Assembly (NCBI GenBank): GCA_964479735.1
Contig: CAYZNT010000018.1
Coordinates: 3,093-67,092 of the forward strand
DNA from: an uncultured Clostridia bacterium
Lineage (GTDB): Bacteria > Acidobacteriota > Aminicenantia > UBA2199
Length of the DNA: 64,000 bases
Reading direction: 5' to 3'
This document shows positions 4,738-34,896 of the stretch, piece after piece; positions within the stretch are counted from its first letter, which is position 1, and the number at the start of each line of letters is the position of its first letter. A program made the position numbers and the translations under genes. The notes under the pieces are model-generated. The model saw only the letters and a list, made by a program, of their open reading frames with translations, was not told the DNA's origin and searched no databases.

Positions 4738-5475
4738 TCACTCCTGGTCGCGGGCGGGGCCCGCCCGGTTTCGGAAATTCTCCCGCTCGGCCAGGAAGCG
4801 GGTCCGGCGCTCAGCCATCTGCTGCAGCAGGGCGTTGGTGCGGTTGACCGCGCCCTGCAGGCCGGCCAGCGCCATCCGCAGCTTCAGCGCCTGGACGTTG
4901 CGCTCGGGGGCGGCGAGGCTTCCGGGTGCCACCTTCTGCGGCAGGGCGAACGACCAGTACTCGAGGCGGAAGTGGGGGGTCAGGAGCGGGGTGATCGCCC
5001 CCGCCGCCTGGCCGAACGCGCCGGGCGCGCCCCCCGGCCCGCCGCCCGGGCCGCCGCCGGGAGCCGGGCGGTCGGACCCGTCTTCGGCCGGCACCATGCC
5101 GGTCCGCTGGCTGAACTTCTCGATCCAGCGCTGCAGCTTCTGGCCGGAGAGATTCAGTTTCGCCAGCTCCGCCTGGACCAGGCGCACGTCCTCGTCCAGC
5201 TTGCGGGACGCCGCGCTCATGACCAGAAAACCCGCATCGGCGGGATCGAGGCCGGCCACGGCATTGGCCTCCAAGGCCCGCGCCAGCGCCTGGGCCGGGG
5301 CCACCGCGTTATCGGGGCTCGCGGCGAACGCCGCCGCAGCCTGCTCCAGCTGCTGCCGCTGCTCCGCGGAGCAGCCGGCCAGCAACTGCTGCTCGCGCAG
5401 ATCGTCCGCGGGGGCGGCGACGAGCGCCAGCGCGCAGGCGACGCCTGCCATCGTCATCACGATTCCACTTTTCAT
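4738..5475 (-). CDS. Secreted, largely helical hypothetical protein with a Gly/Pro-rich linker
   Basis: ATG 5475 with SD GGAGG. Signal peptide MAGVACALALVAAPA, coiled-coil-like segments and a PGGGPGGGPGG linker. Confidence 0.6.
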   Translation of the reverse strand: MKSGIVMTMAGVACALALVAAPADDLREQQLLAGCSAEQRQQLEQAAAAFAASPDNAVAPAQALARALEANAVAGLDPADAGFLVMSAASRKLDEDVRLVQAELAKLNLSGQKLQRWIEKFSQRTGMVPAEDGSDRPAPGGGPGGGPGGAPGAFGQAAGAITPLLTPHFRLEYWSFALPQKVAPGSLAAPERNVQALKLRMALAGLQGAVNRTNALLQQMAERRTRFLAERENFRNRAGPARDQE

Positions 5476-5538
5476 TCCTGTCCTCCGTACGCCCCTTACA
5501 TAAGACCTGGCCACCGGAAATCTCGCCGCGGCCCGGCG

Positions 5539-8747: not shown

Positions 8748-8839
8748 GACCCGGAGTGTACGCCGGCGGCCTCGGGGAGGCAAGCGGGGAGTTGTGTTCA
8801 CCCCGCATTCGAGGCATAATGGATTTGCAAGGAGAACCC

Positions 8840-11761: not shown

Positions 11762-12880
11762 TCAGTAGTAGTAGAGCTGCCACTGCAGGTTGAACTGGCT
11801 GTAGCCGGACAAGGCGGCTCCCGGCGCCGACGAGGTCACCCGCTGCCAGAACGCCTTCAGGTTGCCGGTGTGCCCCTTGAACCACCAGGCCAGGCCCACT
11901 CCGACGCGGGACTCGTCGGGGAGGCCGGAAGTCGGCGCCTCCACATCCCGCCTCTCGAATCGGAAAAGCGGCGCCAGCTTGGACTTGTGGTGACGGAAAC
12001 TGGCTTCCGCGAACCACGCCGTCCGCTTGGGAAACAGCCAGAAGCCCTCTCCCTCGGACATCCACGCGTCCGCCTGGGCGGTCAGCACGTGGGGGCCCAC
12101 CGGCACGTCGAGGAACAGGTCGAGCGAGGTCAGGCGAAAATCTCCCTGCCGGTCGTGGGCGGCCCCAAGGCTGAGGATCTTCCTGGCGCCGCCGTAGGTG
12201 CCGGCCAGGAACAGGCCGCCCTCGGCGTCGAGCAGGTTCAGCTGCACCCGGCCGGCGAAACGCAGGGCATTTCCGGACGGCAACCCGCTCCCGGCGGCCG
12301 CCTTCCGCTTTCCCTGGAACACGCCCAGCCGGGTCTCCACCCGCTTCCCGAACAGGTTGGCGCGCACCATCAGGCCGGTGTCCCGACCCCCGTTGTTTTC
12401 CATCAGGGCGCTCTGGTCGAAGGCGAATCGGCCATAATCCAGCCCGTTGAGGGTGGTGGCCCCCTGATTGCTCAGGTGAGCGCCGGGCACCAGCAGCAGT
12501 CCGGCATCCACCCGGACGTCGTCGCTCACCTTCCAGGTCAGCACCATGTCCTGGATCTTCAGGCCGCTGAAGGAGGCCGTTTTCGAGCCGTTGGCGTCCG
12601 CTTTGCCGAGGTCCGGAGAATCCGTCTCCAGGAAAAACTCGAACGACTTGGCCACCGTTCCTCCGAACAGGAGGCGGGTGCGGCGAATGAAGACGTTTCG
12701 GCTCTGGCCGTCCTTGAGCGCGCTGCCGGCGCTCTCGAACTGCGGCTGCAGCAGCACCCCCAGCCGCAGCAGCACGCCGGGCGCCTCGATTTTCAGGCCG
12801 CCGGGCTTCGGTTCCTCCGCGTCCAGGGAGACATGGGCCAACACGAGCAGCACGCCGACGATCCAACCGCCTTTTTTCAT
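11762..12880 (-). CDS. Phosphate-selective outer-membrane porin (OprO/OprP-like)
   Basis: Signal peptide, alternating beta-strands (IRRTRLLFGG, IQDMVLTW), aromatic C-terminus FNLQWQLYY. Directly downstream of pstS. Confidence 0.75.
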   Translation of the reverse strand: MKKGGWIVGVLLVLAHVSLDAEEPKPGGLKIEAPGVLLRLGVLLQPQFESAGSALKDGQSRNVFIRRTRLLFGGTVAKSFEFFLETDSPDLGKADANGSKTASFSGLKIQDMVLTWKVSDDVRVDAGLLLVPGAHLSNQGATTLNGLDYGRFAFDQSALMENNGGRDTGLMVRANLFGKRVETRLGVFQGKRKAAAGSGLPSGNALRFAGRVQLNLLDAEGGLFLAGTYGGARKILSLGAAHDRQGDFRLTSLDLFLDVPVGPHVLTAQADAWMSEGEGFWLFPKRTAWFAEASFRHHKSKLAPLFRFERRDVEAPTSGLPDESRVGVGLAWWFKGHTGNLKAFWQRVTSSAPGAALSGYSQFNLQWQLYYY

Positions 12881-12959
12881 GGTGTCCCCCGTATGCAAAA
12901 CAGTCCCCAGGCCAGCCGGGTCCGTTTCCGGCTTCCGATGCCCGGCTAGACAATATCGA

Positions 12960-13907
12960 CTATTTCCCGAGTTTTTTCAATGCCTCTTGGCGCTTTTGCG
13001 CCGACAGGCCGATGTAGCCGGTTTCGCCGGTGAAGGCCTGGCCCTCCTGCAGCGCCCAGGCGACGAAGGCGGCCAGCACCGGGCTTTGCGGCCGGCCGCG
13101 GCAGACGAAGTAGAGGTCACGGGCCGGCGGCGCCGGGTAGCGGCCCTCGGCGATGGCTCTCATCAGCCCGTCGCGGTCGGCGTAGAAATCCTCTTCCCGG
13201 TCCACGCGGCCGTTGCCGTTGACGTCGACGGGCAGGGCGGAGAGGCCGGCCACCGGCTTCCGGCTGGCGGCGTCGTAGGCGTAGTTGACGTTGTTGAAGC
13301 CGATGCCCAGCACGTCCTTGCGCACCGCCTCGGCGATGCCCGGGTCGCTGTAGACGCCCACGCCCTGCAGGTCCTCTTGCTGACCGCCCAGGAAGAGCGC
13401 CCAGGTCTCGGCGGCGCCGCAGGAATCGGAGCGGGTGTAGACGTGGACCTCCGCCGTTCCGCCCGGCAGCACCTGGCTCCATTCCCGCACCGAACCGTCG
13501 ATCCACAGCCTGCGGAAGGCGGCGGCGGTCAGCCCGCGCTGGCGCAGGGCCTTCAGGTTGGGATTGGCGGCATTGACCACCGGCACGACGGCGTCCCGGC
13601 AGACGGGCACGAACCAGGCCCCCCTGCCGATCTCGGCGGGGTGGATCTCGCGCGAGACCATGCCGATGTCCACGGCGTTGCTCAGCACGTCGGCGATGCC
13701 TTTCCCGGCCCCGCCGGCCGAGATGTCGATGCGCACCCCGGGGTGGAGCCGGCGGAACTCCTCGCTCCACTTGACGGCCATCGGATAGAGGGCGAAAGCG
13801 CCCGACAGGGTGATGGTGCCGGTGAGCCCAACCGGTTTCCGGGCCGCAGCCCCGACCGGGGCGGCCAGGAACAGCAGCACGAGAGAGACGCAGGTGACCC
13901 GGTTCAT
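12960..13907 (-). CDS. pstS: Phosphate ABC transporter substrate-binding protein PstS
   Basis: ITLSGAFALYPM, ISAGGAGKGIADV, DIGMVSRE, YTRSDSCGAAETW, YPAPPARDLYFV. Confidence 0.85.
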   Translation of the reverse strand: MNRVTCVSLVLLFLAAPVGAAARKPVGLTGTITLSGAFALYPMAVKWSEEFRRLHPGVRIDISAGGAGKGIADVLSNAVDIGMVSREIHPAEIGRGAWFVPVCRDAVVPVVNAANPNLKALRQRGLTAAAFRRLWIDGSVREWSQVLPGGTAEVHVYTRSDSCGAAETWALFLGGQQEDLQGVGVYSDPGIAEAVRKDVLGIGFNNVNYAYDAASRKPVAGLSALPVDVNGNGRVDREEDFYADRDGLMRAIAEGRYPAPPARDLYFVCRGRPQSPVLAAFVAWALQEGQAFTGETGYIGLSAQKRQEALKKLGK

Positions 13908-31020: not shown

Positions 31021-32664
31021 ATGACGCGCAAGGAATGGGAAGAACGCATACTGAGCCGGACGCTGGCCAAGAACCCGGAGCGGCAGCCGCGCTTCAAGAC
31101 GACGTCCTTCGAGGCGCGCCGCCTCTACGACCCGCAGGACCTGGAGGACGCCGACCACGGGCGCGACCTCGGCTACCCCGGCGCCTACCCGTTCACCCGC
31201 GGGGTCCAGCCGACCATGTACCGCGGCCGCCTCTGGACCATGCGCCAGTACGCCGGCTTCGGTTCGGCCGAGGAGTCCAACTCCCGCTACCGCTACCTGC
31301 TGGGACAGGGCCAGACCGGGCTGAGCGTGGCCTTCGACCTCCCCACCCAGATCGGCCTGGACTCCGACAACCCCCTCTGCGAGGGCGAGGTCGGCAAGGT
31401 GGGCGTGGCCGTCGACACCCTGCGCGACATGGAGATCCTCTTCGACCAGATCCCCCTCGACCAGGTGTCGGTCTCCATGACCATCAACGCCACCGCCGCG
31501 GTGCTGCTGGCCATGTACATGGCCGTGGCCGAGAAGAACGGCGTCTCCGCCGACCGGCTCTCGGGCACCATCCAGAACGACCTGCTGAAGGAGTACATCG
31601 CCCGCGGCACCTACATCTACCCGCCGCGCCCGTCCCTGCGCCTCATTTCGGACATCTTCGCCTTCTGCCGCCGGCAGGTGCCGAAGTGGAACACCATCTC
31701 CATCTCCGGCTACCACATCCGCGAGGCCGGCGCCACCGCCGTGCAGGAGCTCGCCTTCACCTTCGCCGACGCCATCGAGTACGTGAAGTCGGCCGTCGCC
31801 TCCGGGCTGGCGGTGGACGAGTTCGCGCCGCGGCTCTCCTTCTTCTTCGCCGCCCACAACAACCTGCTGGAGGAGGTGGCCAAGTTCCGCGCCGCCCGCA
31901 AGATCTGGGCGCGCATCATGAAGGAGAGGTTCTCGGCCGGCGAGAAATCGCAGCTGATGCGCTTCCACACCCAGACCGGCGGGGTCACCCTGACCGCCCA
32001 GCAGCCGATGAACAACGTGGCGCGGGTCACCGTCCAGGCGCTGGCGGCCGTGCTCGGGGGCACCCAGAGCCTGCACACCAACTCCATGGACGAGGCGCTG
32101 GCCCTGCCGTCGGAGGAGTCGGTCCGGGTCGCCCTGCGCACCCAGCAGATCGTCGCCTACGAGAGCGGCGTCGCCGACGTCATCGACCCGCTGGCCGGCT
32201 CCTACTACGTGGAGACGCTGACCCGCGACATCGAGCGCGAGGTGTTCGCCATTCTCGAGCGCATCGACGGCATGGGCGGCATGCTGGCGGCGATCGAGGA
32301 GGGCTGGCCGCAGAAGCAGATCCAGGAGAGCTCCTACGCCTACCAGAAGGAGATCGACTCCGGCGAGCAGGTGATCGTCGGCGTCAACCAGTTCCAGGTG
32401 GAGGAGAACCTGAAGAACCTGAAGACGCTGAAGGTGTCGCCCGAGTCCGAGGCGCGCCAGAAGGCCCGGCTGGCCGAGGTCCGGAAGAGCCGCGACAGCG
32501 GGGCCGTGGCCTCCGCCCTGGCCGCGGTGCGCCGGGCGGCGGAAGGCTCCGACAACCTGCTGCCGCCCATCCTGGCGGCGGTAAAGACCTACGCCACCCT
32601 GCAGGAGATCGCCGACCAGATGCGCGCCGTCTTCGGCGAGTACAAGGAAAAGATCGTCATCTAG
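31021..32664 (+). CDS. Methylmalonyl-CoA mutase, catalytic (large) subunit without B12-binding domain
   Basis: [25 protein letters not shown] (Tyr, MCM-type), [38 protein letters not shown]. Confidence 0.92.
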
Positions 32665-32678
32665 CCGCGCACGGCGGA

Positions 32679-32708
32679 GTTGCCGCCGCGGGCGCCCGCG
32701 GCGGCGAC
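32679..32708. terminator. 13-bp GC-rich hairpin between convergent genes
   Basis: GTTGCCGCCGCGG-GCGC-CCGCGGCGGCGAC (one G-U pair), no U-tract. Confidence 0.4.
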
Positions 32709-32709
32709 C

Positions 32710-33141
32710 TCAGAGCCGGGTCAGCACCACCACGGAGTCGCAGCCGTCGGGCAGCGTGGTCTTGCCCCTCACGCTCAGGTTCCCGTTGCGCCAGCAGAAA
32801 TGGAGCCGGGTCTGCGCCTCCCCCTCGGGCAGGGTCCAGCGCCCGGCGATCACGCAGCACTTCTCGTTTCGCGAGACGACCCGCCCGCTGAAGGTCAGCT
32901 CGGCCTTGTCGGTCGGGCGCACGGCGCTCCCCAGGACCTTGCCCTCGCACCCCTCCGGCTGGCTCAGGGTGACGACGAACTCTCCCTGCCCGGGACGGGG
33001 GCACTGCTCGGAAGCGACATCGCGAAACGTCACCCGGTAGGCACCGGCGATGCAGCCATCCACGGCCGGCGCCGCGCGACCCATCCCGGCGACCAGGGAC
33101 AGCAGGGCGATCAGAAACGGGAACAGACGGAACCGGTTCAT
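32710..33141 (-). CDS. Secreted Cys-rich hypothetical protein (domain X only)
   Basis: SD GGAGG, signal peptide MNRFRLFPFLIALLSLVAGMGRA, 7 Cys. Paralogous to the C-terminus of the upstream gene. Confidence 0.75.
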   Translation of the reverse strand: MNRFRLFPFLIALLSLVAGMGRAAPAVDGCIAGAYRVTFRDVASEQCPRPGQGEFVVTLSQPEGCEGKVLGSAVRPTDKAELTFSGRVVSRNEKCCVIAGRWTLPEGEAQTRLHFCWRNGNLSVRGKTTLPDGCDSVVVLTRL

Positions 33142-33165
33142 GGGTGTCCTCCGATGAAAGCCGCC

Positions 33166-33194
33166 ATCATACAGGGAATTCGAACCGCAGGCAA
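33166..33194 (-). promoter_or_regulatory. Promoter TTGCCT-N17-TATGAT
   Basis: Minus strand: TTGCCT 33194-89, TATGAT 33171-66. Confidence 0.55.
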
Positions 33195-33270
33195 CCCCGC
33201 GCTCGGACCGGGGAGAGCCCCGCCTTCCGGAGCCGCCGGTCGCCGGGGATTCCCCGATCCCGGGCGGCCC

Positions 33271-34326
33271 CTATTTCGGCTTCTTGGCGACGACCGGGAA
33301 CAACTCCCAGGCCTGGACGCAGTTGTCGGGCAGAGTCCCCTTGCCTTTGGCCTTGAGGACGCCGTTGCGCCAGCAGAAATGAAGGCGAACGCGGACCCTG
33401 GCGCCGGACGGCTCCTGGAACACGCCCTCGACGGTGCAGCACTTGTCGGTGGTGGAGACGACGGCTCCGCTGAAAGGCGACCGGGTCCGGCCCCCAGAAA
33501 CCGTCGCGGATCCGGTGAGCTTCGTGCCGCAGCCCTTCTGATGGGCGAGGGTGAGGGTCATCTCGTTCTCCTGCCGATTCCGGCAGTCGGGGCCGGGCAG
33601 GCCGCGGACCTGGACCCGGTAGGTCCCCCCCAGGCAGCACTGGTCCGGGGGAATCGCCGGCCGGCACCGCTGTTTCGCCTCCTCCGGCGTCGCGTAGCAC
33701 TCCCCGCCCTGTTCCTCGCACTGGGCCGGGGCGAGCTGCACCACCCGGCCGCCGATGCAGCACCAGCACGGCGTGGAGCACGCCGCTTGCGCCGCCTCGG
33801 CGCTGGCAAAGCAGGCCCCGCCCTTCTGGCGGCAGAGCGCCTCCGCCATCCGGGCCACCTGGCCGTCGATGCAGCACCAGCAGAGGGGCGGGCAGTTCTT
33901 CTGTGCCTCCGCGGCGGAGCCGTAGCCCACCAGGCCGCGGCGCTGGCACTCGGCGGCGCTGAGCTTCACCACCTCGCCGTCCAGGCAGCACCAGCAGGGC
34001 GGCTGGCAATTCTTCCGGGCCTCCTCTTCGCTGGCGAAACAGGCGCCACCCTTCTCCAGGCAGAGCGCCCTGGAGAGCCGTGCCACCTCGCCGTCCAGGC
34101 AGCACCAGCAGTGCGGCGCACAGTGTTTTCGGGCCTCCTCCTCGCTGGCGTAGCAGACGCCTCCCTTCTCCTTGCAGAACCAGGTCGGCGCCCTCACCAC
34201 TTCGCCGTCGATGCAGCACCAGCACAGGTACGATTTCGCCGCCGCCGTCTGGCCCGGCAGGGCCACCGCCGCGAAACCGGCAAAAGCGGCCAGGGCGAGC
34301 ATCCATGCGATCCGCGTCCGAATCAT
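33271..34326 (-). CDS. Secreted protein with five 38-aa CWCC Cys-rich repeats plus C-terminal domain X
   Basis: ATG 34326 with SD GGAGG, signal peptide, repeats CWCC[IL]DGxVx5-6CxxxGGxC[YF]xSxxxAxxxC, then a domain shared with 32710..33141. Confidence 0.8.
   Translation of the reverse strand: MIRTRIAWMLALAAFAGFAAVALPGQTAAAKSYLCWCCIDGEVVRAPTWFCKEKGGVCYASEEEARKHCAPHCWCCLDGEVARLSRALCLEKGGACFASEEEARKNCQPPCWCCLDGEVVKLSAAECQRRGLVGYGSAAEAQKNCPPLCWCCIDGQVARMAEALCRQKGGACFASAEAAQAACSTPCWCCIGGRVVQLAPAQCEEQGGECYATPEEAKQRCRPAIPPDQCCLGGTYRVQVRGLPGPDCRNRQENEMTLTLAHQKGCGTKLTGSATVSGGRTRSPFSGAVVSTTDKCCTVEGVFQEPSGARVRVRLHFCWRNGVLKAKGKGTLPDNCVQAWELFPVVAKKPK
33655..34224 (-). repeat. Five tandem 114-bp coding repeats
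   Basis: GCAGCACCAGCA (reverse of Cys-Trp-Cys-Cys) recurs at 33757, 33871, 33985, 34099 and 34213, an exact 114-nt period. Confidence 0.92.
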
Positions 34327-34387
34327 GGCATCCACCTCCCGGCAGGGTCGCGGGACCGAAACCGAAGGCTGCTCCCGCTCCGGCGAA

Positions 34388-34416
34388 AGCATACACGACC
34401 GGGCAGCGGGAGGCAA
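34388..34416 (-). promoter_or_regulatory. Promoter TTGCCT-N17-TATGCT
   Basis: Minus strand: TTGCCT 34416-11, TATGCT 34393-88. Near copy of the promoter at 33166-33194. Confidence 0.55.
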
Positions 34417-34470
34417 CCCGCCCGGTGGTTCCCCGTCCGTCCGGAAGGCGGCGGGCTGGAAAAAAAAAGC

Positions 34471-34725
34471 TCAGGCCGTGGTGTCGACGCGCAGCCCGAC
34501 CGGGCCGGGCTTCTCCTCATCGCCCCGCCCCATCGCCTTCTCGCCGCGCTCGGTTCTCATGGGTTCCGGCTGCAGCAGGCCCTTGTCGAGCGTTCCGGCC
34601 GCCTCCCGGGGGGGCATCTCGCCCGTTTCGCCGGTTGGGGGAGGAATCTCCCGCCTTTTCATGGACTCTTTCTGCAGTTCGATCGGCAGCGACGACATGT
34701 CACCGGATATCGGCCTATTGTACAT
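34471..34725 (-). CDS. Small charged hypothetical protein (84 aa)
   Basis: Strong SD AAGGAGG before ATG 34725, upstream TTGAAA-N16-TATTAT, ends in GPVGLRVDTTA. Confidence 0.55.
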   Translation of the reverse strand: MYNRPISGDMSSLPIELQKESMKRREIPPPTGETGEMPPREAAGTLDKGLLQPEPMRTERGEKAMGRGDEEKPGPVGLRVDTTA

Positions 34726-34896
34726 AATTCCTCCTTGGTTTCGCTCCTGGGTCAGCCCGCATGGGATGCCGTGAAATAATAATAGTTCAAAAATCGCGCT
34801 TTTCAATTCCCCGGACCGGCTTTTTGCGCCGCTCCGGAAACGACCCCGGCGCCGGGCGGATTTGCCTCGGACCGCCCCTTTATGTACAATCGCTCC

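Follow-up and report, generated by a model that had tools for sequence, protein, structure and literature searches.

Predicted exported paralogues of an uncultured bacterium combine a rare cysteine-rich repeat with a putative disulfide-stapled beta-barrel

Two adjacent genes, A and B, in a 64-kb stretch of DNA from an uncultured bacterium (64,000 nucleotides of contig CAYZNT010000018.1, assembly GCA_964479735.1; the whole stretch is referred to as the window) were found to be built of two modules that each represent a new family, and neither has a curated model, a solved relative or any literature. Gene B encodes a putative signal peptide, five cysteine-rich units (the CWCC repeat) and a C-terminal domain (domain X), and gene A encodes a putative signal peptide and domain X alone (Table 1). 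The best explanation of the whole, which we hold to be evenly poised between right and wrong, is that A and B are paralogues in which domain X would be a binding barrel and the repeat array a disulfide-locked stalk, each gene being served by a promoter of the sigma-70 type. An earlier note on this DNA had proposed a pair of exported, disulfide-rich paralogues assembled from two modules, and this outline was supported by the analysis reported here.

Two modules without a curated family

Neither protein matched a Pfam or NCBIfam model above the curated cut-off, the best match being Cyt-b5 with 18.8 bits against a cut-off of 23.7. No PDB sequence matched either module, and the motifs WCCIDG, CWCCI and CCIAGTY of the repeat and domain X did not occur in the literature text. 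The earlier note had recognised neither module as a named family and had itself listed a match to a characterised Pfam family among the results that would speak against its reading; with no match in Pfam, NCBIfam or the PDB sequences, the claim stood. Mature A and the C-terminal 127 residues of B were 42% identical over an alignment of 113 aa (E 1e-25), which agrees with the proposed shared domain; it has 7 Cys in A and 8 in B. No further copies of either module were present in the window.

Sequence, spread and architectures of the CWCC repeat

The CWCC motif begins at residues 35, 73, 111, 149 and 187 of B, an exact period of 38 aa (114 bp), and in repeat 3 a glycine replaces the fifth cysteine; both features had been read correctly in the earlier note. 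The cysteines of a unit are spaced C-x-C-C-x12-C-x6-C-x10-C and account for 15% of the repeat region (37 Cys in the whole of B), and the linkers between units are three residues long (APH, QPP, PPL and STP). The five units were 39–66% identical in amino-acid sequence and 56–73% in nucleotide sequence. The units are old and have diverged, and Tandem Repeats Finder accordingly picked up no more than 2.3 copies of the period (78% identity). Conservation across the repeats was 92% for W2, 97% for A31 and 84% for E30, and by inspection the conserved polar residues were mostly at turns and helix caps.

A search of 5.8 billion protein clusters returned 21 relatives of B, to which a two-unit profile added 13. 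When 185,579 species, each represented by a single genome, were scanned with a pattern, 29 repeat loci were obtained, every one of them in a metagenome-assembled genome (MAG). Most of these loci belonged to Chthoniobacterales, Spartobacteria and other Verrucomicrobiae, and the remainder to Aminicenantes, Thermoanaerobaculaceae, Syntrophales and, in one case, Dehalococcoidales. Altogether, 64 proteins with distinct repeat arrays were collected, with 1–13 units apiece, and their hosts were exclusively uncultured Verrucomicrobiota, Acidobacteriota, Syntrophales and Dehalococcoidales. The CWCC repeat is very rare and was confined to uncultured bacteria of soil, sediment and sludge, yet it occurs in at least four phyla.

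Repeats were combined with a signal peptide, a FecR domain and a Pro/Thr-rich tail; with a HAF-repeat region and a tail; with a beta-propeller lectin-like domain (P0021); with a signal peptide and nothing else (4–6 repeats); and with a signal peptide and domain X (2–5 repeats), the last in B, P0004 and P0025 only. When the repeat-bearing homologues were compared with Pfam and NCBIfam, the partner domains FecR and HAF_rpt were matched and nothing else. The earlier note had recommended a check of repeat number and partner domains, and both proved variable, with FecR, HAF-repeat and lectin-like heads in other lineages. At five MAG loci, where the neighbouring open reading frames (ORFs) were read without family scans, the repeat-only genes looked solitary and no conserved neighbourhood was seen.

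The weak resemblance to Cyt-b5 (PF00173) was located at the unit junction, where EEARKHC-xx-CWCCIDGKVV aligns with the start of the profile (positions 1–25). It recurs, with a summed E of 2e-13 in a 13-repeat protein (L030:5266-7512) in which no single stretch exceeded the threshold. Membership of the family was rejected, since the match covers profile positions 1–37 of 74 at most, stays below the cut-off and, in B, is without the haem-ligating HPGG motif. The likeness to cytochrome b5 is thus at the motif level only: the junction resembles its N-terminal helix-hairpin (EEvakHn..dcWvaidgkVYDvt) over about a third of the domain. Common descent of the repeat and the N-terminal part of domain X, both of which open with CC-I/L-x-G, was also rejected (hhalign, 3 columns, probability 3%).

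Predicted fold and disulfide map of the repeat

The AlphaFold2 model of mature B, built from a 70-row alignment, had a mean pLDDT of 87.2, with values >90 over most of the array, and a pTM of 0.42. The combination of high pLDDT and low pTM fits independent beads on a string. Repeats 1, 2, 4 and 5 were modelled in the order E-E-H-E-H (hairpin-helix-strand-helix), and repeat 3 was modelled with a residual third strand.

The occupancy of the six cysteine positions was tabulated over 232 distinct repeats. All six cysteines were present in 129 repeats, whereas C3 and C17 were both missing in 35, C1 and C24 in 31, and C1 and C17 in 10; C4 and C35 were almost invariant. The association of C3 with C17 (phi 0.87) and of C1 with C24 (phi 0.57) was clearly stronger within a unit than across neighbouring units (0.33 and 0.38, respectively), and disulfides between units or domain swapping were rejected on this basis. 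In 20 repeats that stand first in their array, with no unit before them, C1 and C24 were jointly missing. Because the cysteines vanish in pairs, the simplest reading is three disulfides within the unit and no metal site, with the probable pairs C1–C24, C3–C17 and C4–C35 (I-V, II-IV, III-VI). This map is backed by the covariation of cysteine loss, from which the ten repeats without C1 and C17 deviate. These repeats keep C3 and C24 and can be explained by re-pairing; from beta-strand geometry, C1 and C3 would lie on the same face of the first strand.

The connectivity I-V, II-IV, III-VI is typical of Kazal domains and beta-defensins. It is also the connectivity proposed for the CWCC unit from covariation, and the unit resembles these domains in its length of 35–38 residues, its six cysteines, its mixed alpha/beta composition and its tandem arrangement in secreted proteins. 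It differs from them in the order of its secondary-structure elements and from Kazal domains in its cysteine spacing, and no Pfam Kazal or defensin match to A or B was obtained even at E up to 10. EGF-like arrays and the Myxococcus cysteine-rich repeat are likewise tandem disulfide-locked units of variable copy number that serve in stalks, but the cysteine pattern and predicted fold of the CWCC unit differ and no such match was found in Pfam or NCBIfam.

Domain X, a predicted calycin-like barrel

A word-indexed search with A returned A itself and one 88% relative. When 1.84 billion cluster representatives were searched exhaustively with a profile, 87 proteins were obtained at E ≤ 1e-3 (43 at ≤ 1e-10). 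Most members of the family have 140–180 aa and consist, like gene A, of a signal peptide and domain X. Among 56 members scanned, seven were fused to CARDB (one or two N-terminal domains) and three to CWCC repeats; the fused CARDB was the sole Pfam match in this set, and the family profile matched no PDB sequence. The suggestion of the earlier note that a repeat-armed protein is accompanied by a free paralogous domain fits a family in which X stands mostly alone or on CARDB or CWCC arms. Tandem X paralogues were not seen elsewhere, with a single X gene at each of eleven metagenome loci, and no neighbourhood shared among the X genes was found.

The family consensus starts with CCIAGxYxG and has eight conserved cysteines, including two vicinal CC pairs. 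C95 and C116 were lost jointly in five members and C47 and C134 in one, so these probably form disulfide pairs. Domain X would then have four disulfide staples in B and across the wider family, and three in A, where the first cysteine (residue 29) is absent and one cysteine would be spare. The eighth cysteine is restored in P0024, a relative of A; the spare thiol is thus not conserved, and the odd count may be incidental. Taken over the whole proteins, the cysteine counts of A (7) and B (37) are both odd, and each would carry one unpaired thiol if the others pair as proposed.

The AlphaFold2 model of A, from 56 family rows, had a pLDDT of 86.9, with values >92 for residues 30–143. DSSP assigned eight consecutive strands (E33-41 to E135-142) and no helix in the mature domain. 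Foldseek comparison with the PDB returned barrels at a probability of 1.0, matching the OssO spirocyclase (E 3.6e-4), designed eight-stranded barrels (6czg and 6czj; TM up to 0.64, normalised to the target) and nitrobindin (TM 0.40–0.47), as well as fatty-acid- and bile-acid-binding proteins (FABPs), lipocalins and siderocalin. A viral structure library gave no significant match. By the model and these matches, domain X has the eight-stranded antiparallel up-and-down barrel that characterises lipocalins and calycins, and it is predicted to be a minimal, disulfide-stapled barrel of the calycin-like class, a placement at the fold level only. It shares with nitrobindin/THAP4, lipocalins, FABPs, siderocalin and the designed barrels an antiparallel meander of eight strands in about 115 residues. 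It differs from the calycin barrels in its four conserved, predicted disulfides with two vicinal CC pairs, and it is just 9–18% identical to them, with no Pfam lipocalin or nitrobindin match. Lipocalin sequence motifs (Pfam) were absent from its sequence, and its model lacks the N-terminal 3-10 helix and the C-terminal alpha-helix of lipocalins.

Reading frames, constraint and export

The start of gene B was placed at the ATG at position 34326, which is preceded by the Shine-Dalgarno sequence GGGAGGTGG and yields 351 aa, as in public gene calls. A mechanical ORF list prolongs the gene to a TTG at 34416 (381 aa); six independent public contigs carry proteins of 351 and 143 aa. Long spurious ORFs are expected here because the G+C content of the window is 70.4%, and the frames of A and B might themselves be chance openings in such DNA, with a 699-aa ORF on the plus strand (32680-34779) as the true gene. 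We regard the probability of this as negligible. The G+C content at third codon positions (GC3) was 0.91 for A and 0.90 for B in the minus frame, close to the 0.90–0.98 of the adjacent housekeeping genes, against 0.65 in the plus frame; homologues of the minus-strand products occur in several phyla, and these products were modelled confidently by AlphaFold2. With GC1 of 0.86 and GC3 of 0.65, the 699-aa ORF was rejected as a gene and attributed to an antisense shadow of high-G+C DNA.

Gene A had a ratio of nonsynonymous to synonymous substitution (dN/dS) of 0.34 against its 88%-identical relative at locus L036, where the gene order B-A is retained. The GC3 values and this ratio together indicate that A and B are real genes under purifying selection; the two are probably old tandem paralogues. 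Their codon usage, as judged by codon-position G+C, is like that of the host genome and thus gives no sign of recent transfer. Over window positions 31021-33141, gene A was 88% identical to L036 and the neighbouring mutase fragment 98%, and dS was seemingly higher in gene A than in the fragment (0.18 versus 0.06, from small counts). The secreted gene A thus appears to change faster than its housekeeping neighbour, still under purifying selection.

Signal peptides had been assigned to both proteins in the earlier note, and this was borne out: each starts with basic residues, continues with a hydrophobic core and has a cleavage region rich in Ala. The Kyte-Doolittle maxima were 2.72 in A (residues 6–17) and 2.32 in B (residues 12–23), with cores of at least 12 residues, and in the model of A residues 11–17 formed a lone helix within a signal-peptide region of low pLDDT. 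By sequence reading and hydropathy, both proteins have the basic n-region, h-region and small-x-small site of Sec type I signal peptides and no lipobox. Homologues have a matching layout, and SecA, KdsA and KdsD are encoded within the window. A and B are therefore probably exported by the Sec pathway, with cleavage of the signal peptide. Since both modules appear to be disulfide cross-linked, they very probably work in the periplasm or outside the cell.

Table 1. Positions of genes A and B, their modules and nearby elements in the window
Feature	Position	Strand	Description	Basis
Gene A	32710..33141	minus	143 aa; putative signal peptide and domain X alone	ORF list; 143-aa gene call in 6 public contigs
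Gene B	33271..34326	minus	351 aa; putative signal peptide, five CWCC units, domain X	ORF list, public gene calls
Signal peptide of A	33073..33141	minus	Approximately residues 1-23; MNRFR, hydrophobic core, GRA|A; predicted cleavage site	
Signal peptide of B	34237..34326	minus	Approximately residues 1-30; MIRTR, hydrophobic core, AAA|K; predicted cleavage site	
CWCC repeat 1	34111..34224	minus	Residues 35-72	Profile match, independent E 7e-17
CWCC repeat 2	33997..34110	minus	Residues 73-110	
CWCC repeat 3	33883..33996	minus	Residues 111-148; fifth Cys replaced by Gly, 5 Cys left	
CWCC repeat 4	33769..33882	minus	Residues 149-186	
CWCC repeat 5	33655..33768	minus	Residues 187-224	
Domain X of A	32713..33057	minus	Residues 29-143; predicted eight-stranded beta-barrel, 7 Cys	AlphaFold2, Foldseek, family HMM
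Domain X of B	33274..33654	minus	Residues 225-351; predicted beta-barrel, 8 Cys	AlphaFold2 (strands E208-E318 of the mature model), Foldseek
Promoter-like site, gene A	33166..33197	minus	GGGTTGCCT; TTGCCT-N17-TATGAT, GGAGGA Shine-Dalgarno downstream	
Promoter-like site, gene B	34388..34419	minus	GGGTTGCCT; TTGCCT-N17-TATGCT	
Hairpin	32682..32705		Perfect 10-bp G+C stem, 4-nt loop, between gene A and the methylmalonyl-CoA mutase gene, whose stops converge	

Proposed role of the two proteins

In the explanation that we favour, A and B would be Sec-exported, disulfide-stabilised proteins of an uncultured Gram-negative bacterium of about 70% G+C living in sludge or biofilm. A would be a free barrel, and B would carry a barrel of this type behind a row of five self-contained mini-domains of 38 residues. 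Each mini-domain would consist of a beta-hairpin, a short helix, a strand and a second helix, locked by the three proposed disulfides, and the five together would most likely form an extended, protease-resistant stalk. The variable copy number, the position of arrays between diverse heads and low-complexity tails, and the location of the polar residues at turns and caps point, with moderate force, to such a structural stalk or spacer. Domain X would most likely be the binding module, whether for a protein partner or for a small ligand, probably a hydrophobic or planar one. Its calycin-like fold class consists mostly of small-ligand binders with some enzymes and inhibitors, and binding of a small ligand is a tentative suggestion from the model. 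Each gene would have its own sigma-70-type promoter, of the kind used for kdsA. The free catalytic domain that the earlier note had entertained found no backing, as nothing suggests catalysis in what appears to be a small barrel of binding type.

Several observations weigh against this account. The fold similarity of domain X is generic (TM 0.4–0.64, 9–18% identity), within a class that holds binders, enzymes and inhibitors, and fold searches with whole B as the query gave barrel matches only. The high conservation of W2, A31 and E30 could equally reflect binding by the repeat. Secreted repeat-only proteins exist, which does not suit a pure spacer and keeps alive the idea that the units themselves bind something. 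The neighbourhoods give no functional clue, with housekeeping flanks here and solitary repeat-only and X-only genes elsewhere; a sequencing-run search found no RNA run containing the sequence; and the source organism may be an anaerobe.

Alternative explanations

If the CWCC units bound a glycan, the cell wall or a surface, B would be an adhesin or resemble a lectin, and A, which has the same barrel, would serve as a soluble competitor or decoy. This is possible, if on the improbable side. Adhesins and lectins typically have partners such as those of the repeat (HAF repeats, the lectin-like propeller of P0021 and a FecR region similar to the Lsa33 adhesin), the unit is highly conserved in sequence across phyla, and the repeat-only secreted proteins of Aminicenantes, Thermoanaerobaculaceae and Syntrophales would be odd for a pure spacer. 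Against it stand the absence of similarity to carbohydrate- or peptidoglycan-binding families, the turns and helix caps that account for most conserved polar positions, and the lack of an anchoring signal in B. Somewhat less probable is a stronger form of recognition by the repeat, in which the unit would be an undescribed bacterial three-disulfide mini-fold (hairpin-helix-strand-helix; I-V, II-IV, III-VI) and a true recognition module, a counterpart of eukaryotic EGF/Kazal-type arrays combined with a new family of disulfide-stapled barrels; since A (7) and B (37) each have an odd number of cysteines, a covalent A–B heterodimer could then be possible. We likewise consider it unlikely that domain X inhibits secreted proteases in the manner of some calycin-class barrels, free in A and tethered in B. 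Metalloprotease inhibitors are among the members of the calycin superfamily, X is predicted to be a small, secreted and heavily disulfide-stapled barrel, and at locus L039 genes for an ECF sigma factor, a zf-HC2 anti-sigma factor and a subtilase (Peptidase_S8) are immediately followed by a CARDB-X gene. This context is peculiar to L039 and is found neither at the other ten X loci nor in the window, and no known inhibitor was among the top 50 structural matches. The genes at L039:1572-8011 all run in one direction, and the CARDB-X gene is followed by those for an unknown secreted protein and a PASTA-domain protein.

Metal binding or a redox role, one of the options raised in the earlier note, would have the cysteines hold a metal in metallothionein-like, zinc or iron-sulfur sites. 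The cysteine content of the repeat region, the CxC and CC motifs and the origin of the hosts in sludge, soil and sediment are in its favour, and we nevertheless give it a slim chance. Cysteines are lost in specific pairs and not in sets of four, units with four cysteines are common (76/232), and a tetrahedral site would not survive where, as in a third of the units, a defined pair is missing. Moreover, the proteins have signal peptides, the repeat is modelled confidently as a folded alpha/beta unit with no ligand, and the Cyt-b5 hits are weak and confined to the helix-hairpin that lacks HPGG. In a different idea, B would be a polyprotein whose linkers are cut so that five defensin-like three-disulfide peptides are set free as antimicrobials or signals. 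The units are indeed self-contained (35 residues) with linkers of just three residues, and their predicted connectivity is that of beta-defensins and Kazal domains. The linkers have no conserved cleavage motif, though, no protease or exporter gene is among the adjacent genes, and most homologues hold the units inside large multidomain proteins, all of which makes such processing highly improbable. The stalk-and-barrel explanation is preferred to these alternatives.

Promoters and transcription

The motif GGGTTGCCT-N15-TGTATGMT had exactly two matches in the 64 kb, one 5' of each gene, where 0.01 was expected by chance. The near-identical promoter that the earlier note had placed before each gene was thereby recovered and is partly conserved at L036. 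The N17 spacing given there is that of the hexamers TTGCCT and TATGMT; 15 nucleotides separate the 9-mer from the 8-mer that the note itself had written. The A site matched the sigma-70 consensus at 9/12 positions and the B site at 8/12, below the scan threshold of 9/12. Upstream of gene A at L036, TTGCCT, TATGAT, the leader and GGAGGA are kept and the 17-bp spacer differs at many positions, and these conserved blocks around a diverged spacer are a reasonable footprint of a functional sigma-70-type promoter for gene A.

The further proposal that the twin promoters imply duplication with co-regulation was weakened. Alignment of the regions upstream of A and B showed nothing shared past the -35 and -10 blocks, so that duplication of the promoter along with the gene is not supported. 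TTGCCT-N17-TAnnnT occurred at four sites in the window against 0.02 expected, and the divergent gene kdsA also has a promoter-like site with TTGCCT-N15-TGTA (34862-34890, plus strand), which ruled out a motif specific to A and B. Given this site, the shared motif is best read as an ordinary promoter form of the organism, and each gene can probably be transcribed on its own. Three of the four sites (A, B and kdsA) lie within 1.8 kb, each with TG just before the -10 block; the fourth is at 8755-8783 on the minus strand.

The hairpin downstream of gene A (Table 1) may be a bidirectional terminator, with no U-run on either strand. No Rfam match was obtained for the region at E up to 1, and the fold of the B-A intergenic sequence was no better than that of shuffled sequences (z -1.1).

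Genomic context

Genes A and B are flanked by enolase and methylmalonyl-CoA mutase on one side and by kdsA, kdsD and a HAD-family hydrolase on the other. The rest of the window resembles ordinary chromosome, with genes for SecA, GlnRS, GluRS, glutamate dehydrogenase, a penicillin-binding protein and a hybrid histidine kinase. The sequence was found in sludge, biofilm and wastewater metagenomes only.

Just upstream of B, an 84-aa ORF (34471-34725, minus strand) was called as a gene in all public contigs and had no Pfam hit. Its GC3 is 0.82, and its product is rich in Pro, Glu and Gly and probably disordered. It is preceded by a promoter-like site at 34779-34806 (minus strand; TTGAAA-16-TATTAT), the best sigma-70 match of the region (10/12), and a run of nine T on the minus strand closely follows its stop codon. 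Elsewhere in the window, ORFs at 1210-2781, 4738-5535 and 11762-12973 (all minus strand; 265–523 aa) have high GC3 and no Pfam match at E ≤ 1e-4.

Significance

Tandem arrays of small disulfide-rich domains typify eukaryotic extracellular proteins and are seldom seen in bacteria. The barrel fold class and modular secreted proteins with tandem disulfide-locked units are already familiar, and what is new at the family level is the two modules themselves. As long as neither a ligand nor a phenotype is at hand, the practical significance stays limited; at present the pair is a good candidate for family definition and structure determination. A defined bacterial three-disulfide repeat with a map predicted from covariation would be useful for Pfam and InterPro curation and as a stable scaffold for protein engineering. 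With the X family, the calycin-like class would gain a minimal barrel of eight strands that is heavily cross-linked, and the CWCC repeat should aid work on the surface proteins of Chthoniobacterales and of uncultured groups related to them.

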